From NCBI GenBank assembly GCA_963770935.1, contig CAVYRJ010000008.1, positions 32,001 to 96,000 on the forward strand: 64,000 bases of DNA, in the 5' to 3' direction. The notes beneath the pieces were generated by a model. It saw nothing but the letters and a program-made list of their open reading frames with translations, ran no database searches and was not told where the DNA came from. Origin of the DNA: Candidatus Bathyarchaeota archaeon. GTDB lineage: Archaea > Thermoproteota > Bathyarchaeia > Bathyarchaeales > Bathycorpusculaceae. Positions 48,829 to 59,199 of the stretch are shown piece after piece. The number at the start of each line of letters is the position of its first letter. The stretch's first letter is position 1. A program made the translations under genes and the position numbers.

Positions 48829-49446
48829 CTAATAATCTATGATTGTCAAGCGTGTTCTTATGTTAAGACATACAATCTCATCTACTTCGGGCAGGAGCAA
48901 CTTGATAGCGCCTAAAGAAGCCGTAGGCTCAGCAACGATTATTTTTTAGGCTTTTTTTCCCTCACAGATCTTGCGGCAGCCAACATTGTAAATCCTGAAG
49001 CCAACCCATCGTCAACAAGTATGACAACCTTGTCGGCAAGATCAGGCATAGGTTTATCTCCTCTGAACTTACGAAGCCTCGCCTGAAGGTTTTCCTTGGT
49101 ATTCAAAATTGACGTCTTAATCTCATCTTCTGTTAGCTCTAACTGCGTAACCAAATCATCGTTTAGGACAATTTTTCCATCCCACGTTATTGCGCCAAAG
49201 CCAGCTTCAGTGTTCCACGGAATTTGAATCTTCCTAACTACCAACACATCCATCGAGACAGCGAGTTCCTTCGCTGCCGAATATCCCACTGGAACTCCGC
49301 CGGCAGGTACAGCCAAGATAACTACATTTTTATCACCAGCGTAATCTCTGAGTTTGTCCGCCAAAAGCTTTCCAGCCTCAAACCTATCTCTAAAAACAAA
49401 AACCCGATCTCTAAAAGTTATATCTTCAATAACTTTCGCAGTCATA
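48829..49446 (-). pseudogene. Phosphoribosyltransferase family protein, frameshifted and apparently C-terminally truncated
   Basis: FRDRFEAG..LA, VPAGGVPV, VRKI, ILVDDGLASGFT; continues IIVAEPTAS..VDEIVCL in a shifted frame, then stops early. Confidence 0.7.
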
Positions 49447-49646
49447 ACTCCCAGACCCAACAAGTGATAATCTATTAAGGTCTTAAAAAACAGGTTCCGT
49501 TTTTACTCACCTAAGAATCGATTCATTACCCCCCTAGATAATTAGCAATTTGTTGGAGTAGCCAGACAACAACAAACACCATACAAAAGGTGGTAAGTTG
49601 TTTACAAATCGTCTTCAAAGGGCTAAACATAATGCTCAAAGTTCAT

Positions 49647-49931
49647 TTAACATTCTAAGGTAATCTTTTTGGTCGTTTTATTATTAAAAAGTTTTTTCAC
49701 ATGTTCCTCCCGTTTATTCCCAGCTGTTTTGCTTCTACTAACGGCTTTGTTGAGTATTGTTTCTTCGTTGATAGCTTTCTCCATTAGGCTTCTCACTGCT
49801 TGGTTCATATTGCCGTTGAAGTAGGGTTTAACGATTTTGAGACAGAATTCTTTCAACATCTTAGCTGAGAAGTTGTGGAATGTTAGAGATACAAGTAAGT
49901 CTGCTTCGGTTGCTATTTCATTTTGTGTCAT
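49647..49931 (-). CDS. Small hypothetical (RHH-like) protein
   Basis: SLTFHN...KMLKEF...IVKPYF.GNMNQAVRSLMEKAI. Confidence 0.6.
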   Translation of the reverse strand: MTQNEIATEADLLVSLTFHNFSAKMLKEFCLKIVKPYFNGNMNQAVRSLMEKAINEETILNKAVSRSKTAGNKREEHVKKLFNNKTTKKITLEC

Positions 49932-50214
49932 GTTTGTTCACAGAACCAACGTTATTTTGGATATTGCTTAAAAGACGGACGTCCATGCAACATTGCAGGT
50001 TCTGGAGAGGTCTGTGAAAGTGATCGTTTTTGAAATCCATGAGATTCAACATAGTACAATTTGCGACCTACTTTTACAAGATAGCCAGAATTGAGCAACA
50101 AACGCAACCCGGGTGTTTTGCTACAATAAAATGGTCGCGATTCGGTCAAAACCTTAGTTGCAAAGGTTACTTGTGAGCGGGTAATAAACAAAATTAGGTT
50201 GAGAGAGCAAAGAT

Positions 50215-51633
50215 TTAGGCTGTTGGTTGAAATCCCATTGGCCAATTTGGCGGTGTCTTGTTTAGGTCCTGCTTCTTTTTGGTGGATGGCTGCGACTGTT
50301 GCGTTAACGTTTTTTTCCTCAACTACAAGGATAATCTGTGACGTGTGGGGTGCAAAGATACCGCGTTTTATGTTTATGCCTGATATGGCGCTGATGGCTA
50401 TCGATGCTACGCCCGGAGAATTCTTCATGCGGTCGCCGATCAATGTGACGACGCCTAAACCGTAATCGATCTTGAGGTGTTCATCGAAGCCTTTGAGTTT
50501 TTCCTCGTTTTTCTTAAGGAAATCTGAGTCTAAAAACAGAAAGTCGCGGATGCGCTCGCCTGTTTCCATGGTTTCAGCTCCCAAATCCATGAAGTCGTTT
50601 CGTCGTTCCCATATGCGCAGGGAGTCTTCCAGTGAGCGACTTTTTTCGTCATTCATTGAAAGAATTGCGCAACCTGATTTTCCGGTCAGACACTTGACGA
50701 CTTCGCCGCCTTTTGTTTCAGCCTCAATTATCGAGTACATCTTGGGCTCATCGATAGGCACCACCATCAAGGGTTGTCCAAACTGTCTTGCCATTGCGAT
50801 TGCTGGGCTCTGCACGATTTTCATACCCATCATTGACGCTTTATGGGCTTCATTGTAAGTTAATGCGTTGACGTGTTCGGTTTTCTGTCCCTTTACAACT
50901 TTGGGGTCGGCACTCTGCACTGGTACGTCCTTGTAGAGGAGGGTTTTTGTTTGGTACACGTCTTTTAGGAGGCAAGATGCGAAAACAGCCGTTAAGTCTG
51001 AGCCGCCTCTGCCAAGTATGGTTTCTAGACCGTCTGCTGTGGCACCTAAGAAGCCTGCCAAAGAAACAACCTTGCCCTCTTCGAGGGGTTCAATTAGGGT
51101 ATGGAGTCTTTTTTTGCTTGACTCGAAGTTAGGTAATGCATCTTCAAAGTTATCGTCTGTGACGATTGGCCAGTCTTCCATAGAGAGACTAGCACGACTC
51201 TATTCCATTGCTTTTTAGGATGTAATCCGTCAGCATTGACATGGCAAGTTCACCGCCCAACGTGAGGGTTCGCGCTTTGATGTTGCCGCTGAAACGCTTA
51301 TTAACGGCGTCAAGAGTGGTCTGGGTTAACACCTGTAATTAGCCAACTCTCCTTGGGCTTGTTTTAGATATTTGCCCTTAACGTAGAGCTTGGCAAGTTC
51401 GTAGACTTCAAAAACAGGCTCCAGAGGCAACTGAACATGCCTGCGCGTAGGATTCACCTATTCTGATGAGGGCATCAGTGCAGCCCATAGGTGCAGAAAA
51501 CACTGCTACAGGTCCACACCCGTCTTTTTCCCTAATTTGCTTTATCTGCTTAACTATTTTGGGGATTCCTTTGCCTTCCACATCAAGGAGGCTGCCGCCG
51601 AATTTAGCTACTGAAACAGTCTTAAAAGCTCAT
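50215..51633 (-). CDS. lysC: Aspartate kinase with several frameshifts
   Basis: VAKFGGS at about 51610, VAVFSAP.G.TD, LGRGGSD.TA, ADPKVV, LTYNEA, C-terminal ACT domain; ends approximate. Confidence 0.88.
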
Positions 51634-51971
51634 TCCACCTATTACGAAGAAAGAATAAATTTTTTATTGCTGGTTATTCTGGTTTGCGAATTTACGAAGA
51701 CCTTTATTATTTCCAAGTTATTCTCTCCATATTTTACTGTAGCTTTTAGCTTTCAAATAATTAATAACTTTCCCTTTTGAATCTGTAAGGTTTTTTCGCT
51801 TAGAAGTGTTTTCCAACAATATTGAATGAGAGTTCATAACTCTTTTCGAGTTTTATACTCGTTCATTATCCAATCTTTCCAAGTTTGAGTCGGTTATCTT
51901 GAATCTCGGCGATCACAAATCATTAGTACTAGAGGGCGAATAGGGAAATGGAAGGTTGGGAGGTGAAAATT

Positions 51972-52814
51972 ATGGGAAGTAGAAAAGCTCTTTGCATCGG
52001 AGTAAACAAGTACAAGAATCTTCCTTCTGCCACGCTTCAGGGATGCGTTAACGACGTAAAGAATATGGAATCAATTCTTACTCAGTTTCTGGGTTTTTCT
52101 GGCACTTCTGGACCAAACCCAGACATAGTTGAATTAACGGATCTTAAGGCGACCAAGACTAAAATAATGAAAAATCTCAAGGAGATGGTTGATGGAGCAA
52201 AAAAAGGCAAATACAACTATCTGGTTTTTAGCATGTCAAGTCACGGAACTCAAGTCCCTGATACTTCAGAAGACGAACCAGACCGCGCTGATGAAGCTTT
52301 TTGTCCAACAGACCTAATTCAAAAAGGTAACCAGTGGGACCCAGCACACATAATAGTCGACGATGAACTTAATGACTTATTTACTCAATTACCACAAAAC
52401 GTTTCACTAGAAGTTTTCTTAGATACATGTCACAGCGGAACAGGCCTCAAAGCTATAGACTTGCTGTTAGATCGCAAACCTCGTTTTCTGCCGCCTCCAT
52501 CTTGGGAAGCTTTTGAGTTAGTTAATGGGCGTCGCTCTTTTGGCCTTCGGGACACTATGGCAAAAAATGAAGAAATTCACCATATACTTTGGACGGGATG
52601 CAGGTTTGACCAAACTAGCTCTGATGCAAATATTGCAGGAACTTGGAACGGAGCTTTCACATACTATCTTTGCAAGGAAATAAAAGCGAGCAATAACAAA
52701 CTAACCCGAAAACAACTCATGAATAAAGTTAGGGCTGACTTAGTGGCTAACCATTACGCTCAAATACCGCAACTAGAAATAGAAGCTACCAAACGAAATA
52801 TGCCAATTTCGTAA
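51972..52814 (+). CDS. Metacaspase (peptidase C14, stand-alone)
   Basis: RKALCIGVNKY, LQGCVNDV, catalytic His (SSHGTQ) and Cys (DTCHSGT), D..DEA..P.D, QTSSDA, NGAFT, QIPQL; SD GGAGGTG upstream. Confidence 0.95.
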   Translation: MGSRKALCIGVNKYKNLPSATLQGCVNDVKNMESILTQFLGFSGTSGPNPDIVELTDLKATKTKIMKNLKEMVDGAKKGKYNYLVFSMSSHGTQVPDTSEDEPDRADEAFCPTDLIQKGNQWDPAHIIVDDELNDLFTQLPQNVSLEVFLDTCHSGTGLKAIDLLLDRKPRFLPPPSWEAFELVNGRRSFGLRDTMAKNEEIHHILWTGCRFDQTSSDANIAGTWNGAFTYYLCKEIKASNNKLTRKQLMNKVRADLVANHYAQIPQLEIEATKRNMPIS

Positions 52815-52822
52815 AAAACACC

Positions 52823-52868
52823 GACGCACCTTAACCTATGGTGCATCTCTTCTTTTTTCCTTGTTTTC
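52823..52868 (+). terminator. Hairpin plus pyrimidine/T tract after the metacaspase
   Basis: GACGCACC..GGTGCATC imperfect inverted repeat followed by TCTTCTTTTTTCC. Confidence 0.45.
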
Positions 52869-53290
52869 AAGCATTTAGGTTTTCAAATGTGATACTTTTT
52901 GATTTTCGGATTGTCTAAATAGTCAGCAACTACATAGATAGACTAAATAGCAATTCAGGTTTTAGGTTAAATAAGGAAAACCGTTTTTCTTTGTATGTGA
53001 TTCGCAATAAGCTTCGGCTGGTCCAATAATGAGTATGCGCTTATCTTCAGCATAGATTGGTCTTGGACCATGAGAGCTCCCAATCGAAAACCTTAACTGT
53101 AATAAAATCCGTAGAGTTTATAGATAATCGGAAGATTTAAAGCGGTTCAAAACTTGTTTCACACTCTCAATTAGAATACGACGCCACCAAGTTTCTTCAA
53201 TTCTCTAATTCATTGCCACAATAAACTGCAATCTGCCGATCGGTGTGATAACTTAAAAAACTAAAATAAATCCAAAGTTGGTTAGAAAAC

Positions 53291-55088
53291 ATGCCAGATG
53301 AACCAAAGCAAATTGAGCATCTTGACGCGTTATTGGTGCATATCCAAGCTGCTTCGATGCCATGGATGTTCCAGCGCCAAGCTCAGTTGGGGCTATACTA
53401 TCTTGCTCAGCACGCAACTGACAAAGGCTTCAGGGTTCTTGTAGATAACCTTTCCTCCAATGACCATGTAGTCCGCAGGCTCTCTCGCATTCTCAACGAA
53501 CGCACATGTCGCCTTATTGGATTCTATGTTGACCAAGACAACTTGTGGACATTAAGAAGAATTTTGACGCCTCTTAAACGATTAATGCCCGACCTCAAAG
53601 TAGTACTCGGAGGACCTCAAGTAACCACTGATCCAGAGTTCACTTTGAATAACATTCCAGAAGCGCTTTGCGGCGTTGTGGGCGAAGGAGAAGAAACCTT
53701 TGCTGAGTTACTCTCTCTTCCAAATCTTAGTTCTGAAAACTTGGAAAAATGCCGAGGACTAATAATCAATGTTGATGGAATAATAGTGAAAACTGAACCA
53801 CGCGAATTAATTGAACCTCTGGATCGCCTATCCATTCCTCAACGCAAGAAACTGAGCATCGATCCGAAAACTGTTGGAGCTACCATGATTACTGGACGTG
53901 GTTGTATTGGGCATTGCGCGTTCTGTTACGAGGGCGGACATCACGAACATGGAAAAAAGATACGTTTGCATTCGGTTAAACGAAGCTTGGAAGAGTTCGA
54001 TTATCTCGTTCGCGAGTTCGACCGCTCCTACATAACCATAGTAGATGACTCTTTCGTTACCAATGTCAGTCGCCTCAAAGAATTCTGCAAAGAAGTCAAA
54101 GCCAAATACGGTGACAAGATTAAGTGGTTCTGTGAATCTCGCGTCGATGTTTTAGCTAAAAATCCTGATTTGCTCCCTACAATGATTGAGGCAGGACTCA
54201 TTCGGCTTCAAGTTGGCGGGGAATCAGGCAACCAGCATATACTGGATCTGTATGGGAAAGGCACCACTTTAGAACAGATGCATACGGTTGTGGAATCCGC
54301 GAAGAAGAATGGTTTGCTATCGATTTATGCTAATTTCATCGTGGGCGGCGCTTGTGAAACACAAGAAACTTATAGAAAAACTCGAGACTTCGCACTTGGA
54401 CTTCTTGATCTTGCTCCGGGCTGCATGGAAGTCGGAAGTTCCTTCTATACGCCTTATCCAGGAACTAGAATGTTCGAAAAACCTGAGGCTTTCGGAATTG
54501 AAGTTGTAGACCGAGAGGTTGTTACAGGCGCAGGCGATGAACACGCTTTTTGCAAAACCCAAGAGCTTTCAAGATTCGACATTCTGGCGATAAATCTAGA
54601 TTTTAAACGTAGCGTATCTCAAAAAATGAAAGAACTATGCAAACAGCTACCGTTTGAAGTGATCAAGAAGCACTTTCAAGCATTTCACAACTGGAATCTC
54701 TCCACCGAGTGGTATGAAGTTCTTGTGGGAGATCAGAGTCGGTACGCTTACTTCAAATCGATTCTTTCAGGAGGCGCGAAAGATTTTGCAGACATTGCCC
54801 AGCAGAATTTCTCAGAAGCCTATCCATGGCGCACAATTGATCTGGTGACATCTGAAAATGGCAAATATCGTAATTCGCACACATAACGGCAACGTACGTG
54901 TTTTGGATGAGCTGGAAAACATGGTTCTTGAGCTGTCCGCTGGTAAACTCAGTTTTGATGACATAGTCACGATAATAAGCAATCGAACGCCAGGAATCTC
55001 GGCAAGCATAATACGAGAAGCTTGCATAGAGCGATATGATACGTTTGACAAAGAATGTCTGGTTGTCTGGAAAACAAATGTGTTGTAA
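53291..55088 (+). CDS. Cobalamin-binding radical SAM enzyme (class B methyltransferase-like) with C-terminal RRE/PqqD-like winged helix; frameshift near 54866
   Basis: LGLYYLA, VLGGPQVT, GEGEETF B12-binding motifs; GRGCIGHCAFC; DDSF, G.ESG, TPYPGT; the 54858..55088 frame gives strands then LDELENMVLELSAGKLSFDDIV helices. Confidence 0.9.
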
Positions 55089-55289
55089 AACCGGAAAACT
55101 GCGTGCATTCAAGAATAAGGGAATGTGCTTTTGTTGTTTAGTTTTTGCTCGAATCAAAATGTTCTTATACCATCCAAAGAATAGTCACTTAAGGCTACAA
55201 GTCGTAGCATAATTCTTGCGATACAACAAATTCTCTCAGATTAAAATGGAACAATCGAGAGAAAACGATGGAGTAAGGAGGTGATGTGA

Positions 55290-55664
55290 ATGGCGAAAAC
55301 TGAAAGTAAAAAGGCTGCCCGGAAAATTCTTGTGGAGTTTGAGATGAATCCTGAGGACGTGAAAAAACTCATACAATCTGGAAAGAAAGGACCTAAGAAG
55401 CTGCTTGGCGATGCAGAATTTGATAAGCTCATAAAAGTAGGCGCAATCAAGGCTTCTGATTATCTTGACCCAGTTCAAATGGAAGAAGCGTCTCGAGGAA
55501 TAGGATCATGGATAAGGAAAGTCGGAGGTAAAATTAAGAAAGCAATTTCCAACCCAACTGTTCAAACTACGGTCGTAACAATTGTGGCTGGGAAACTTAC
55601 TTCAAGAGAAATGGAGAAAGAATTGGAACTTGATAACGAAGAAGAAGATAAGCCTAAAGATTAG
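55290..55664 (+). CDS. Putative peptide precursor (leader / cationic amphipathic core / acidic follower)
   Basis: Strong SD AAGGAGGTGA; core GIGSWIRKVGGKIKKAISNPTVQTTVVTIVAGKLTSR flanked by EEASR and EMEKELELDNEEED. Confidence 0.75.
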   Translation: MAKTESKKAARKILVEFEMNPEDVKKLIQSGKKGPKKLLGDAEFDKLIKVGAIKASDYLDPVQMEEASRGIGSWIRKVGGKIKKAISNPTVQTTVVTIVAGKLTSREMEKELELDNEEEDKPKD

Positions 55665-56000
55665 CAAGCACAACTGAATCGAACTAATAACTCTGCTCAT
55701 TGACGATAATGGCAGGAAAATATAATCGCAACTAAAACATCTATTATTTTGCAAACGGTTTCAGTCTCTGACACAAATTATATCACGATCGAGAAAATGA
55801 GGATAGTCGGTTCGAGGTTCACATCGACAGGCTATCAGATCTACTCTTTTTTGGTTAGTCAACATACTTTTCATGCTAATTGAAGTCAATTAATTTGTTA
55901 TATTCTTATATTTGTACGGAATTAGCAAATTTAAAGCAAAAAAAGAAAAGGAAATAAACGCCGACACGCTTCCAACTAGACAAGAAGGTTTTATTGAGTT

Positions 56001-56408
56001 ATGTACGACGGATACATATTTTTCTGTACCAAAGAATCCCAGCAACAATGTTTAAGCAATAAACGCTACACTTGCGCGGATGAACTAACAAAGCCCCCAG
56101 AGGAGCAAATTAAGGTGGGTTCAATAATTTTCCTTTTTAATGTTGGCGATAAGAGTTTGCTGGGTCCTTTCACAGCCTTGGCGGAAGGCGATCAGTTGGA
56201 TGCTGGCGCATGGGCAATGGACGTTGACACCCACATACCGTCCGAAGACCTCAAAGTAACTTGGGAGGACCTGCATATAATCCAAAACGCACCTGAAAAA
56301 CTCCCGTTCCTAAAGGAACCAAAAACCTGCAAGCTAACATCTTTAGAAACACAGAATACTTTAGACCAGCTAAAACAGGGCGAACTCTACCTTTACGCTA
56401 AAAAGTAG
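56001..56408 (+). CDS. DCD (development and cell death)-like / EVE-PUA fold protein
   Basis: GYIFFC......CL..IKVG..IFLFN.....LLGPFTA pattern. Confidence 0.65.
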   Translation: MYDGYIFFCTKESQQQCLSNKRYTCADELTKPPEEQIKVGSIIFLFNVGDKSLLGPFTALAEGDQLDAGAWAMDVDTHIPSEDLKVTWEDLHIIQNAPEKLPFLKEPKTCKLTSLETQNTLDQLKQGELYLYAKK

Positions 56409-56413
56409 ATGAA

Positions 56414-56602
56414 CTATTGCTTACTGAATTTTTTTGCTTCTAACTCCACGATTTTGTGGCAGTTAAGGCATCGTGTCAACTTAAATTCTAAGCCGTTGAG
56501 AATGTCAAATTGCCTCTGGTTGTACAACTCCTGTTCATGGACACAATTAAGCTGACGTGTACTAAACAGAATATCTTCTTCCATTTGCCTTCTCCTTCTC
56601 AC
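56414..56602 (-). CDS. Small putative zinc-binding protein
   Basis: CVH..RCLNCHK. Confidence 0.6.
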   Translation of the reverse strand: MRRRRQMEEDILFSTRQLNCVHEQELYNQRQFDILNGLEFKLTRCLNCHKIVELEAKKFSKQ

Positions 56603-56665
56603 TTAACTGTAAAACTAAGGTTGCTTAAAAAAATTTGCAAACAAAAAAGCTAAGGTAAATAGCGG

Positions 56666-57094
56666 TTACTCTGCTGTTTTCACTTCAACTTCAACTTTAA
56701 CCGGCACAGATTCCTTGTAAACAAACAGCACTGGGCAACCTGCTTCAGTCCGTCGCCAAGCAGCTTCAACTAAAGCTTTCCGTGCTTTCGACGCAATGTT
56801 GACTTTCATCGAAACTCCGCTTAACGTAGGCGAATTAGCTGTTTTCTCCGCTTCCACCGAAATGTTGATGTTGCCGGGATCAATCTTGCTGTTCTTGCAG
56901 ACATCCGCGTAGATTATAACTCCGCAGCCAGCCAGAGCCATCAAAGCCAACTCCAGCGGTGTGGGTCCAGCGTTTGTTCCTCCTGAAGCTTCGGATAAAT
57001 CGCAGATAACACTGTGTCCTCTGCCATTATCGGTTACTAAACGGACATTTTCAATAAGTTTCGCGTTTCCTTTAAGTTTAGCCATAAAATTCAC
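56666..57094 (-). CDS. OsmC/YhfA family protein
   Basis: GGTNAGPTPLELALMALAGC..CPV. Confidence 0.9.
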   Translation of the reverse strand: MNFMAKLKGNAKLIENVRLVTDNGRGHSVICDLSEASGGTNAGPTPLELALMALAGCGVIIYADVCKNSKIDPGNINISVEAEKTANSPTLSGVSMKVNIASKARKALVEAAWRRTEAGCPVLFVYKESVPVKVEVEVKTAE

Positions 57095-57225
57095 TTGGAG
57101 AAATTAGAAGTTTATTACGGATTTAAGAATTCTGTTCTTCAAAACTGACCGTTGAATTTGCAGTTGGAATGTGAAGTGTTAAATAGCAAAAAACCCGTTT
57201 CAACTAAACAAAAGAGGAGCAATAC

Positions 57226-58305
57226 TTGAAAAACAAAGGTCCCCTATTTATCGTTCCCTGGCGATGCACGTTCGCCTGTGGCAGCACCTGCGTTCACTGC
57301 ACCTCGGCAGAAAAACTCGCGGCTCCAGATGAGATGGGAACTGAAGATGCTAAAAAAATGGTCGATAAAATAGCGGATTTTGGCGCAACTTTTTTTGGAA
57401 TCACGGGTGGACAACCATTTCTGCGCAAAGACCTCTTCGAAGTGTTGGATTACGCGACAGAAAAGGGTTTGAGTACCAGCATAATTACCGATGGGCGTCT
57501 CCTTGATGAGGAAGCGTTCAAAAAAATAGTGAAAAATCAAACTAAAATTTCAGTCAGCATTGACGGCGCAGAAAAAACTAACGATGCCATCCGAGGCAAG
57601 GGCGCCTACAAAGCGGCAGTCTTAGCGATCGAGCGGTTTTCAAAAGAAAAACTCCTAAACTGCCTAGTTTACACTTTTGCAAACGCAGGCCAAACGACCA
57701 ACGCAAACGAGGATGATATGAGACATGTGCTGGATTTAGCTAAAAAGTACGATGCCCGCTGGGTAGTTTTCCACGGCATGGTTCCCTACAGCAGCGACCC
57801 AGCCTGTCTAAAAGCTGACCTCACCCCTGCCCAGTACGAGTGGGTGTGCAACAAACTCTACGACCTAACCCCAGAGTATAACGGGAAACCCTGCATCAAC
57901 GTCTACATACCCTTCTATGCCCGAGTAGCAAAACAACGAGGCATGCCCGACTTCGACAACTGGTACAACAACTTCTTCTTGGGCAGATGCTTTTTCGGCA
58001 AATTCATGAGCGTGGCAGAAAACGGCGAGGTTATTCCCTGCAGCTACAATGATGCTTACCACGTCGGCAATGTTAAAAACAAATCTCTTGGGCAAATTTG
58101 GAAGAAAATGCAGAAAAGCGAATTCTTCAACAAAGTTAAAGATAAAGCTAACATCAAGGGCAAATGCGGCGTCTGCGAATACAAAGACCTCTGTGGCGGC
58201 TGCCGATCAGCTGCACTATTCTACACAGGAGACATCCTTGGGTCAGACCCAAGATGCGCCTACATACCTGCTGCTCTTAGCAAAACTAAGTCTCCTATTC
58301 GTTAG
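57226..58305 (+). CDS. Radical SAM/SPASM domain protein (NirJ/Ahb/PqqE-like)
   Basis: C.STCVHC triad (CGSTCVHC), TGGQP, SIDG, SPASM C..GEVIPC..KCGVCEYKDLCGGCR..DPRC. Confidence 0.9.
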   Translation: MKNKGPLFIVPWRCTFACGSTCVHCTSAEKLAAPDEMGTEDAKKMVDKIADFGATFFGITGGQPFLRKDLFEVLDYATEKGLSTSIITDGRLLDEEAFKKIVKNQTKISVSIDGAEKTNDAIRGKGAYKAAVLAIERFSKEKLLNCLVYTFANAGQTTNANEDDMRHVLDLAKKYDARWVVFHGMVPYSSDPACLKADLTPAQYEWVCNKLYDLTPEYNGKPCINVYIPFYARVAKQRGMPDFDNWYNNFFLGRCFFGKFMSVAENGEVIPCSYNDAYHVGNVKNKSLGQIWKKMQKSEFFNKVKDKANIKGKCGVCEYKDLCGGCRSAALFYTGDILGSDPRCAYIPAALSKTKSPIR

Positions 58306-58734
58306 GTCTACCCATTTGCTAAGATGATAAATACCGCTTATCTAAGAGAGCAGTCTAAGAGTAAACCGGATCAGCGTCTCTATCCAGTAAACTTAGTTTA
58401 TTGGACGATTCTGTTTTAGGATGGCTGCAACAGTTGCAGCAGTTCTGCGCCTACGCCTAATAATCAACACCGATACCTGCAAGCGCAACTAATACAGCTA
58501 TGGCAACGATAATGGCTATCCAAGGTGTCTTGGCTGGACTTAATGTCTGCATGAAGGGTATTTATATGGTGAATGCATGTTGACTTTGAGAGTACATGCA
58601 TGAGATGATCCAAACCCCTTGTTTTGCCTGCGCTTTTTGGGCTATATAGTTTGCATTTTTTACTTGAAGAATCCTCAAATTGGACGCAACAAATTATGGT
58701 GGTCTATAGAGCCGAAGAGAACCATGTCTCGACG

Positions 58735-58817
58735 CAGCTCAGGGCACTATTTTAAACAAACGACTTTTTAAGTTCAGACCCACGATGCGGATACATACCT
58801 AAAATGCTGAGGGATAG
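58735..58817 (+). pseudogene. Relic copy of a SPASM-protein 3' end
   Basis: Translates RALF*TNDFLSSDPRCGYIPKMLRD, matching AALFYTGDILGSDPRCAYIP of the upstream gene. Confidence 0.55.
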
Positions 58818-58926
58818 TCAATTCCAATATTAAATCCAAAAGTCAGTTATCGAGAGCGACGTGCACCCAAAAATATTTGGAAGAGAGAGGGGTAAAGGGA
58901 ATCTTGTCTGGATGCACGTCACACAT

Positions 58927-59199
58927 TTACATTGGACTTCTCAGATGCTGTTGGAAGAGGAATCCGCAGGTTTGTCTGGACTTGCTGTAGTTTCGTTGCG
59001 CTTTGGCTTTGGGGAAAGACAGTTTCTGTGAGCCTTTACTTGTTATGAAAACTGAGCCGCCGTTTTTGAGGTGTTCTTTAACTTGGCAGAAATCAACTTG
59101 TTTTGATTCTTGAACTTCAACGTCGTCGCTGGCGTCGTTGTCGAGAAGTAGTACTTGAAAAACTGATGGCTTCGTTTTTTTCTTTAGCATAGTTGCCAT
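58927..59199 (-). CDS. Hypothetical protein
   Basis: About 90-aa ORF, ATG after GAAAGGAAG. Confidence 0.6.
   Translation of the reverse strand: MATMLKKKTKPSVFQVLLLDNDASDDVEVQESKQVDFCQVKEHLKNGGSVFITSKGSQKLSFPKAKAQRNYSKSRQTCGFLFQQHLRSPM

Follow-up and report, generated by a model that had tools for sequence, protein, structure and literature searches.

Three genes that read in the same direction stand together in a 64,000-nt stretch of Bathyarchaeota DNA (hereafter the window): a C14 metacaspase, a B12 radical SAM (rSAM) enzyme and a 124-aa orphan protein. The locus raises the question of whether these genes make up a single system. An earlier note, made from the sequence alone, held that they do: it proposed a RiPP or toxin system in which the rSAM enzyme modifies the core of the small protein and the metacaspase acts as the maturation protease. 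That interpretation is, as a whole, partly supported. The features on which the argument turns are collected in Table 1.

Table 1. Features of the locus, given in window positions.
Feature	Position	Strand	Description
Strain-specific 4.3-kb insertion	51643..55916	.	Between aspartokinase gene and DCD-like gene; content is exactly three genes
Stand-alone C14 metacaspase / caspase-family protease, 280 aa	51972..52814	+	Pfam PF00656; His91 and Cys153 intact
Hairpin GCACC...GGTGC, then T-rich run	52826..52868	+	After metacaspase stop; read from sequence; terminator-like
Class B (cobalamin-binding) radical SAM enzyme, first frame, 531 aa as assembled	53291..54886	+	Pfam B12-binding and Radical_SAM
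Predicted RRE (PqqD-like) domain of rSAM	54770..55088	+	54770-54868 in first frame; 54870-55088 in second frame (ORF 54858-55088)
Putative Shine-Dalgarno-like AAGGAGGTGA	55275..55284	+	5 nt upstream of small-gene start; read from sequence
124-aa precursor-like protein	55290..55664	+	N-terminal ~60 aa conserved (55290-55469), variable middle, C-terminal Pro-Lys-Asp (55653-55661)

All three co-oriented open reading frames are present, and their description as inserted among housekeeping genes holds: in a genome of the same genus that is without the island (G001) the insertion is replaced by 68 nt, the junction being read directly in the sequence. Blastn against this genome pairs window positions 50215-51642 with L124 4543-3115, and 55941-58269 with L124 3047-710. 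A DNA contig of run X1 departs from the window at 51642 and continues into the empty-site sequence. No flanking repeats above chance were found at the island. The repeat search returned six short families; one repeat, at the right boundary (53117-53143 / 55911-55937), was set aside as chance, with a score of 18 against 23 for other random island windows. No Rfam families occur in positions 49000-59000. The DCD-like gene, considered for a time as a fourth member, was dropped: it lies outside the insertion, and is seen in all four same-genus genomes compared (by DNA alignment in three and as an ORF in three). Viral contigs searched with the rSAM held no relative, while those searched with the metacaspase held one distant relative (44%). 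PADLOC assigned no defence system, its matches being limited to a generic model for caspases (E 3.8e-16) and a weak one for the rSAM; nothing among the tests run speaks for a toxin role.

The identity of the central gene as a cobalamin-binding radical SAM enzyme is secure. Both Pfam domains score above cut-off (PF02310 B12-binding, E 6.4e-17, residues 32-141; PF04055 Radical_SAM, E 6.3e-15, residues 199-368), both occur in all 22 family members, and the three cysteines of the CxxxCxxC motif (C205, C209 and C212; the window reads GRGCIGHCAFCYEG) are invariant in the same 22. The assembled frame is short. The rSAM has 273 homologs in the protein search; those at 84-98% identity are 598 aa long, and comparison with a 92.6%-identical contig reveals one extra T at 54868, which shifts the frame after codon 526 and puts the last 73 codons into a 76-aa ORF (54858-55088). 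That ORF matches rSAM C-termini in 20 of 26 loci, in keeping with the corrected C-terminus that had been proposed. Among the contigs of four runs none crosses 54868: that of X2 stops at 54866 and that of X1 at 54837.

Against NCBIfam the enzyme reaches no model's cut-off. The best scores are to HpnJ (121 against a cut-off of 578) and BchE (121 against 481); the ApyD family (NF050148) is the third-best match at 103.1 bits, against a cut-off of 750, so the enzyme is not a member. Scores are lower still for the methyl-coenzyme M reductase (MCR) glutamine C-methyltransferases (TIGR04014; 74.6 bits, cut-off 360) and for the PoyB/C type (TIGR03975; 66.8 bits, below the cut-off of 281.85). Family matching therefore does not fix the chemistry, and B12 rSAMs also carry out non-methylating reactions.

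More can be said of the C-terminal tail, which the earlier note had read as PqqD/RRE-like. Its structure was modelled from the protein of locus L042, which is 93% identical, with the C-terminal 105 aa as input. The model (pLDDT 91.4) has three strands and then three helices (beta-beta-beta-alpha-alpha-alpha-beta; E18-21, E33-36, E42-44, H47-55, H62-72, H78-95). In VIA-align its three top matches, which span 81-90 residues, are the lasso peptide protein B1 (6jx3_B, Z 9.5, 82/85 residues aligned), TbiB1 (5v1u_A, Z 9.3) and PqqD (5sxy, Z 9.1); TigE, TbtB, PbtF-RRE, ThcOx, MibB, LynD, CteB, MccB and NisB follow lower down. Foldseek returned the same kinds of protein, all with E-values above 1e-3. 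The Pfam PqqD model finds no match at E ≤ 1 in any of the 22 rSAM members and none at E ≤ 10 in the 76-aa ORF; because it misses the tail in all 22, the RRE assignment rests on the predicted fold. RREs are known to escape sequence models (PMC10635010). On the strength of the model we confidently predict that the C-terminal ~105 residues of the rSAM adopt the RRE fold, much as the earlier reading had it.

What, then, would such a domain bind? The obvious candidate is the 124-aa protein. It matches no Pfam family at E ≤ 10 and no NCBIfam family at E ≤ 0.01, carries no leader of a known family (NHLP, Nif11 and others), nitrile-hydratase-like leaders included, and finds no neighbour in the ESM Atlas at 0.9 or above (best score 0.77, too low to be meaningful). 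AF2 predicts no stable fold (pLDDT 48.4). The earlier note had allowed that the precursor might turn out to belong to a known globular family; neither the family searches nor the fold prediction point to one. A family nevertheless exists: 40 representatives were recovered at E ≤ 1e-3 from a 50%-identity library. Its members range from 80 to 143 aa, which is long for a precursor. One further candidate, P0311 (915 aa, matched in five stretches), is an unrelated repeat protein whose match is confined to the Lys-rich helix.

Alignment of 37 representatives shows a conserved block that ends in G-A-I-K-A-S-D-Y-L and in which V15 is found in 37/37 and E18 in 35/37; a middle with a mean column identity of 25%; and a C-terminus with Pro at position -3 in 29/37. 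Of the leader-core-follower organization that had been proposed, the conserved N-terminus and variable remainder stand. Conservation is strongest in the first 60 residues and in the final three, not in a classical core. To judge by sequence, the small protein appears to combine a conserved recognition part and a variable part, as expected of a precursor.

To place the family in its genomic context, its profile was run over 20,256 frames from 106 loci (1.27 Mb). There were five matches, each directly downstream of an rSAM ortholog of at least 44% identity (L016, L017, L018, L032 and L042), and these five are every ortholog locus with checkable downstream DNA. The other 101 loci, including 78 distant B12-rSAM loci (≤33% identity), gave none. 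By label the hosts of the pair are Bathyarchaeota, Myxococcota, Acidimicrobiia and Acidobacteriota: the pairing is kept in archaea and in three bacterial phyla, and the suggestion that the 124-aa gene is the partner of the rSAM is thereby upheld. The rSAM and the small protein are a conserved two-gene pair. No other neighbour is conserved beside them, and no protease, exporter or immunity gene is kept; a secreted natural product is therefore not implied. The distribution is patchy (1/401 in the class, 2/120 in the genus). In the reading that we favour, the rSAM and small-protein module moves horizontally and arrived here within the 4.3-kb insertion.

Beyond the family itself, a metagenome scan with P0002, a relative of the rSAM with an intact frame, yielded 80 loci, of which two contain close relatives (L042 and L043, both short) and 78 distant ones (≤33% identity). 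A small ORF adjoins the enzyme in distant rSAM clades too: Ala/Val/Ile/Gly-rich ORFs of 81 and 109 aa in L035 and L037, ORFs of 79-89 aa in L029, L030, L031, L033 and L034, and a Cys-rich peptide of 42-43 aa in seven Bacteroidales-type loci. A literature search turned up nothing on this rSAM subfamily, and no Bathyarchaeia rSAM RiPP; the supplementary compendium of PMC10288494, with ~15,000 RRE-associated rSAMs, may list the family.

Together these data make it probable that the locus carries an uncharacterised RRE-dependent B12-rSAM/precursor module of two genes, in which the enzyme docks and modifies the small protein encoded downstream and of which the metacaspase is not part. We infer that the C-terminal RRE would first dock the small protein by its conserved N-terminal ~60 residues, and that the rSAM would then modify the docked protein. 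If other RRE-bearing B12 rSAMs are a guide, the likeliest reaction would be C-methylation of an unactivated carbon. The family alignment offers two candidate target sites: the Val/Thr/Ala/Ile-rich stretch NPTVQTTVVTIVAG, and the conserved C-terminal Pro-Lys-Asp/Glu. The unit is compact, and although rare (40 representatives among 1.84 billion proteins) it spans the divide between archaea and bacteria. New peptide chemistry comes in large part from RRE-dependent radical SAM pathways, of which, to our knowledge, hardly any have been described in archaea.

The fate of the product separates this reading from its nearest rival, in which the pair is a protein-modification system: the ~120-aa protein would stay whole and inside the cell, and would need the rSAM modification to do its work, with neither cleavage nor export. 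The lack of a conserved protease or exporter beside the pair is consistent with this, as are the size of the family members, the conservation of both their ends and the score of the rSAM against TIGR04014, albeit one below the cut-off. However, RRE domains are known as parts of peptide pathways, the small protein is without a predicted fold, its middle varies in the manner of RiPP cores, and the patchy horizontal spread fits an accessory trait. We regard this alternative as unlikely.

Less probable by far is that the small protein is an unrelated or regulatory operon partner rather than the substrate, the rSAM acting on a small molecule or on some other protein. Modification of the small protein is, after all, a prediction only, and the best family scores of the enzyme are to HpnJ and BchE, which are lipid and tetrapyrrole enzymes. 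Against this, a domain of predicted RRE fold fused to an rSAM would need a peptide ligand, the small ORF is the sole conserved neighbour of the rSAM, and adjoining small ORFs are kept by other rSAM clades as well.

There remains the metacaspase. That it is an intact stand-alone enzyme was correctly recognized: it scores 105.3 bits against Pfam Peptidase_C14 (PF00656; E 5.1e-30, cut-off 21.4), and the catalytic His and Cys are invariant in all 13 aligned relatives. Its homologs begin at the position of the ATG at 51972 rather than at 51948. They number 2728 at E ≤ 1e-10 among 3083 candidates from a 90%-identity library; of four cited here that bear names, three are labelled Methanothrix, Methanotrichaceae or Methanoperedens and one Syntrophales. 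The hairpin and T-run beyond the stop codon look like a terminator, an RNA-library contig of run X14 stops at 52871, and a 476-nt spacer precedes the next gene. The best explanation is that the gene is transcribed on its own and belongs to a family of stand-alone proteases that is both large and highly conserved.

Several observations nonetheless favour a bond between all three genes. They form one insertion in one orientation, and stand together in all close strains observed (contigs of 9386, 4555, 20348 and 48710 nt, and L043), that is, in all contigs of the same population, with proteins at least 90% identical. Contigs from RNA libraries cover the metacaspase (51965-52871) and the small gene (55207-55762) alike, as separate pieces; the libraries are two runs of one study, and 52872-55206, which includes the rSAM, is without a contig and so uninformative. 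The nearest outside relatives, moreover, lie at similar identities (84, 76 and 72% for the rSAM; 85, 84, 82 and 77% for the metacaspase).

The wider comparison goes the other way. By blastp, a metacaspase homolog lies within 10 kb of the rSAM in none of 26 genome loci, that of the same-genus carrier G809 included; the count is without the contigs of the 71-84% rSAM relatives (72,991, 10,676 and 11,740 nt). Five genomes in which a small ORF lies downstream of the rSAM were searched as a whole with PF00656, and three of them (G809, G825 and G826) have no C14 gene. Judged by the contigs of cluster representatives, the contigs that metacaspase and rSAM share all belong to clusters of 90% identity or more, which amount to one population. 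Thus the co-occurrence proposed as a check in the earlier note is borne out for the rSAM and small protein (5/5 loci) and fails for the metacaspase, and the role of maturation protease is not sustained. Nor are the two Ser-Arg sites at which it was to cut conserved: among 37 representatives, 8 have a basic residue at the column of R69 and 6 at that of R106. The metacaspase family is also far larger than that of the small protein, with 2728 homologs against 40 representatives, numbers that are only roughly comparable because they come from searches at E ≤ 1e-10 of a 90%-identity library and at E ≤ 1e-3 of a 50%-identity library.

The metacaspase thus looks like an independent neighbour and no conserved part of the module. 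As the three genes are one block and stay together in all close strains, a local functional link to it may exist. A still broader proposal would combine everything: an undescribed mobile class of ribosomal products in archaea and bacteria, with a 60-residue leader of new type docked by the RRE, new chemistry on the C-terminal Pro-Lys-Glu/Asp or the adjoining beta-branched stretch, and a caspase-family protease recruited for release in this Bathyarchaeia lineage; we think it improbable. That the three genes form one system, with the rSAM modifying the core and the metacaspase maturing the product by cuts after Arg69 and Arg106, is, given the absence of a metacaspase homolog from the 26 rSAM loci, the gene's own terminator-like end and the unconserved sites, the least credible reading of the locus. 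Our literature search found no RiPP pathway with a C14 protease, and the word 'metacaspase' does not occur in the text listed for the leader-protease review PMC10885120; the present data are no first case. A caspase-processed RiPP class is a tempting claim without support, and its removal saves misdirected experiments.

How does the two-gene module compare with known systems? The closest parallel is ApyD/ApyA (aminopyruvatide, Burkholderia thailandensis). According to PMC10635010, the RRE-containing B12 rSAM ApyD methylates its precursor at the C-beta of a Tyr in the penultimate position, next to the C-terminus. In both cases an RRE-bearing cobalamin rSAM is encoded together with a known or putative precursor. 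Unlike that cluster, the present locus has no neighbouring gene for an MNIO, a P450 or a methyltransferase; the putative precursor bears no relation to ApyA and is far longer, and the RRE is C-terminal.

A second parallel is with the polytheonamides, in which PoyB and PoyC are B12 rSAMs that C-methylate side chains in the Val/Ile/Thr/Ala-rich core of PoyA. The PoyB group is named among B12-dependent C-methyltransferases in PMC10288494. Val, Ile, Thr and Ala likewise abound in the variable region of the small protein. In contrast to PoyB/PoyC (TIGR03975), there is here no Nif11 or nitrile-hydratase-like leader, and no epimerase or other tailoring gene.

Archaeal B12 rSAMs also modify methyl-coenzyme M reductase. 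These enzymes (TIGR04014) too are class B rSAMs of archaea with a protein as their substrate, but they are not known to carry an RRE tail or to have a small substrate gene of their own. The upstream gene of the island is a full member, by domain and His/Cys dyad, of the prokaryotic metacaspases or orthocaspases (Peptidase_C14). Finally, the predicted fold of the rSAM tail is the same as that of PqqD and lasso-peptide B1. Those are stand-alone RREs, whereas this one is the C-terminal domain of a class B rSAM or, in the frameshifted assembly, is split from that enzyme.

The earlier note described three co-oriented genes inserted among other genes, and this observation is confirmed: the metacaspase, the cobalamin-binding (B12) radical SAM enzyme (henceforth rSAM) and a putative precursor (the small protein) are all present as ORFs on the forward strand between 51972 and 55664. 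In the same-genus genome G001 the flanks equivalent to 50215-51642 (aspartokinase side) and 55941-58269 (DCD-like gene, OsmC and SPASM radical SAM side) are separated by just 68 nt; relative to G001, the window thus has 4.3 kb of inserted DNA (51643-55916), which holds these three genes and no others. A DNA contig from sequencing run X1 departs from the window at 51642 and enters empty-site sequence, and no repeats above chance flank the insertion. Each of the three genes is rare across the lineage. One relative out of 41 has the metacaspase, as do 2 out of 401 genomes at phylum level; the rSAM ortholog turned up in a single genome among 401 from the class and in 2 among 120 from the genus; and just one of the 41 relatives encodes the small protein. 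A second small-protein match among these 41 (E 0.005, internal stops) was rejected as chance-level.

Features of the insertion, its neighbours and related loci (bare coordinates refer to the window)
Feature	Location	Strand	Remarks
Aspartokinase	49952-51642	-	broken
Metacaspase	51972-52814	+	280 aa; Pfam Peptidase_C14, E 5.1e-30, 105.3 bits vs cut-off 21.4
rSAM	53291-54886	+	B12-binding domain and radical SAM domain
Small protein	55290-55664	+	124 aa
DCD-like protein	56001-56408	+	135 aa; PF10539, plant 'Development and cell death' (DCD), E 3e-8, 34 bits vs cut-off 27.8
Radical SAM/SPASM protein	57226-58305	+	best matches AhbD heme b synthase (200.8 bits vs cut-off 500) and TIGR04053
YVTN-type repeat protein	G016, aspartokinase/DCD-like spot		
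Pro/Thr-rich secreted or surface proteins	G003 and G014, aspartokinase/DCD-like spot		
No cargo	G001, aspartokinase/DCD-like spot		68 nt
Variable-site cargo	L125 2519-3709; L127 15456-16756; L126 2024-2989		
79-89-aa ORF	L029 9738-9995; L030 1158-1424; L033 9732-9995; L034 1197-1466; L031 9696-9935		
Bacteroidales-type clade loci	L019, L021, L022, L024, L026, L036, L038; e.g. L021 8572-12823		

Within the genus, what lies between the aspartokinase and DCD-like genes varies: three further members carry other cargo at this intergenic site (a YVTN-repeat protein; Pro/Thr-rich surface proteins). At the left edge of the insertion, the aspartokinase gene is split over two frames, its N-terminal 73 codons occupying 51629-51411 and 415 codons running in a different frame past the normal stop. 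Relative to G001 it has several single-base indels, and the match in its own genome has internal stops; homologs within the genus are intact, with lengths of 463-471 aa. Because the insertion starts ∼14 nt upstream of the aspartokinase start, it may have silenced this gene and left it to decay; alternatively, this part of the assembly may be prone to errors. The DCD-like gene was rejected as part of the finding: it lies outside the insertion, occupies the same place in G001, G003, G014 and G016, and is a conserved gene of the genus. The SPASM protein, also outside the insertion, is genus-conserved at 70-84%, with several 43-47% paralogs per genome.

C205, C209 and C212 of the rSAM are invariant in an alignment of 22 of the 120 homologs listed. 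Relatives at 84-98% identity are 598 aa in length, as against 531 in the window. In the homologous protein P0002, SENGKY runs continuously into VIRTHNGNV, a sequence that in the window belongs to a 76-aa ORF (54858-55088). Alignment with the metagenome contig L042 (92.6% identity) located the frameshift: the sole coding-region indel is one extra T at 54868 in the window, which may reflect faulty assembly or a genuine mutation; no contig aligned from the sequencing runs crosses this base. Intact 598-aa proteins occur in other assemblies of this population (one on a contig of 493,642 nt), and in further assemblies both the rSAM and the metacaspase copies are fragmented.

The PqqD/RRE-like nature of the C-terminal tail, proposed previously, is accepted on account of its predicted fold. 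A model of the last 105 residues (17-sequence alignment of L042 and 16 of 26 genome loci) has a pLDDT of 91.4 and the order strand-strand-strand-helix-helix-helix-strand. Comparison by VIA-align against 48,161 chains matched it to the lasso-peptide B1 protein 6jx3 (Z 9.5, 82 of 85 residues aligned), TbiB1 5v1u (Z 9.3) and PqqD (5sxy, Z 9.1; 3g2b, Z 7.4), with RRE-bearing enzymes lower down (TigE, TbtB, PbtF, ThcOx, MibB, LynD, CteB, MadB, MccB, NisB and TglHI). The best row, methyltransferase Rv2067c (Z 10.8), contains a similar winged-helix domain. Foldseek returned the same families, all at E-values above 1e-3, and the Pfam PqqD model detected the tail in none of 22 rSAM family members.

The small protein matches no NCBIfam family and, even at E≤10, no Pfam family. 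Among 1.84 billion representatives it has 40 matches at E≤1e-3 (31 at E≤1e-10), which, bar one unrelated protein, are 80-143 aa long. In a 37-row alignment V15 is invariant (37/37) and E18 nearly so (35/37), within a conserved N-terminal block consisting of K-I-R-V-E-F-E, then E-x-V-K-x-L-I-x-x-G-x-K, then L-x-K-x-G-x-I-R-A-S-D-Y-L. The next 40-60 residues are variable (mean column identity 25%), and 29 of 37 rows have a proline at exactly position -3 from the C-terminus, mostly as Pro-Lys-Glu/Asp. AlphaFold gave no stable fold (pLDDT 48.4, 9-row alignment). This pattern of conserved, variable and conserved segments, together with the lack of a stable predicted fold, bears out the tripartite part of the leader-core-follower layout claimed for the protein. 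The third segment fares differently: judging by its conserved final three residues, the tail seems to be more than a follower and could itself serve as the target. The two Ser-Arg sites named as points of cleavage lack conservation, with basic residues in 8/37 at the R69 column and in 6/37 at the R106 column.

The rSAM family is wide: of 8000 candidates that were scored, 273 proteins reach E≤1e-30. A search of species-representative genomes returned 26 loci, in MAGs labelled Bathyarchaeota, Myxococcota, Acidobacteriota, Acidimicrobiia, Bacteroidales, Oscillospiraceae, Erysipelotrichaceae, Desulfosporosinus and Geobacteraceae. One (L016) is from G809, a genome of the same genus as the window; its rSAM is 68% identical and has other neighbours, an AlaX-like gene on one side and a histidine kinase on the other, which points to separate acquisitions. 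Matches at 30-36% are abundant in genomes of the lineage: these are B12 radical SAM paralogs, mostly of ∼470 aa, with matches stopping before the tail. G000 and same-genus genomes contain many: each yields 3-13 matches at E≤1e-20, and the genes often cluster on one contig (e.g., G015:C27, G012:C13).

A small-protein profile, built from 37 of the 40 representatives (omitting P0282 and P0286, which are short, and the unrelated P0311), was run on 20,256 stop-to-stop frames from 106 loci. It matched five frames, each directly downstream of an rSAM ortholog (L016, L017, L018, L032, L042), and none in the other 101 loci, 78 of which are distant B12-rSAM loci (≤33% identity). Three of the five matched proteins belong to the profile itself and their scores follow by construction; unlike these scores, the position of the five matches and the absence from 101 loci are independent of profile membership. 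No neighbours besides the pair were found in common among the rSAM/small-protein loci. Distant rSAM clades likewise have small ORFs adjoining the enzyme: those of L035 and L037 (81 and 109 aa) share a similar short motif, E-F/Y-x-A-M-V-x-x-G-E-h-L-A, and have Ala/Val/Ile/Gly-rich, in part repetitive tails; in five further loci ORFs with a G-H-F-M-P-L-V-F motif overlap the rSAM start; and in seven Bacteroidales-type loci a gene for a 42-43-aa Cys-rich peptide separates a second radical SAM gene from that of the B12 enzyme.

Two of these clades have further features. Four loci of the G-H-F-M-P-L-V-F clade (L027, L029, L030, L034) encode a 107-116-aa CxxCxxCC (PF03692) protein. The Bacteroidales/gut-bacteria clade (38-40% identity) has a fixed gene cluster: radical SAM gene, peptide (C-terminal end CASGCG[MI]CGYG), B12 rSAM with RRE tail, and M42 peptidase, the last preceded in some loci by a 306-aa membrane protein. 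A tyrosine integrase is close by in eight loci. The arrangement resembles an uncharacterised RiPP cluster carried by integrative elements; the words B12 and cobalamin are absent from a survey of Bacteroidales RiPPs (PMC10352776).

The metacaspase is intact, as had been claimed: in addition to its Peptidase_C14 match, the catalytic His91 and Cys153 are invariant across 13 sequences (the window, 11 of the 120 homologs listed, and locus L123). Homologs start at the ATG at 51972, with GGAGGTGA just upstream. The family is very large and tightly conserved at ∼276 aa (E≤1e-10 is reached by 2728 of 3083 candidates); the 120 homologs among the matches listed are 64-99% identical, and the few names on them include Methanothrix, Methanotrichaceae, Methanoperedens and Syntrophales. 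Its proposed role as maturation protease is not supported. By blastp, no homolog lies within 10 kb of the rSAM at any of the 26 loci. Of five genomes carrying the rSAM and a downstream small ORF, a PF00656 search found no C14 gene in three (G809, G825, G826), and eight matches in G824 (Myxococcota) and one in G827, none placed beside the rSAM. Metacaspase and rSAM share contigs only within clusters of at least 90% identity and in L043, a metagenome contig 92% identical to the window. The metacaspase gene ends in a hairpin followed by a T-run, 476 nt from the rSAM. Metatranscriptome contigs from two libraries of one study cover 51965-52871 and 55207-55762 at 95-99% identity; given that RNA libraries can contain DNA, they only hint that the metacaspase and small-protein genes are transcribed as separate units.

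The other half of the earlier interpretation, a putative pairing of rSAM, RRE and precursor, is supported by the comparative evidence. All 24 NCBIfam matches of the rSAM fall below cut-off, among them HpnJ (121.2 bits vs 577.6), BchE (120.8 vs 481.35), ApyD (103.1 vs 750), the MCR glutamine C-methyltransferase (74.6 vs 360) and PoyB/C-type TIGR03975 (66.8 vs 281.85); the sequence-nearest solved proteins are AprD4, CysS and OxsB, with E-values no better than 2.5e-17. Literature searches of main texts found no paper on the rSAM subfamily, nor any that places a C14 protease in a RiPP pathway. ApyD is described as an RRE-containing B12 rSAM that methylates the C-beta of its precursor's penultimate Tyr (PMC10635010). 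Given this precedent, the kind of system is already known; what is new is the enzyme subfamily, the precursor family with its new leader type, and the presence in archaea.
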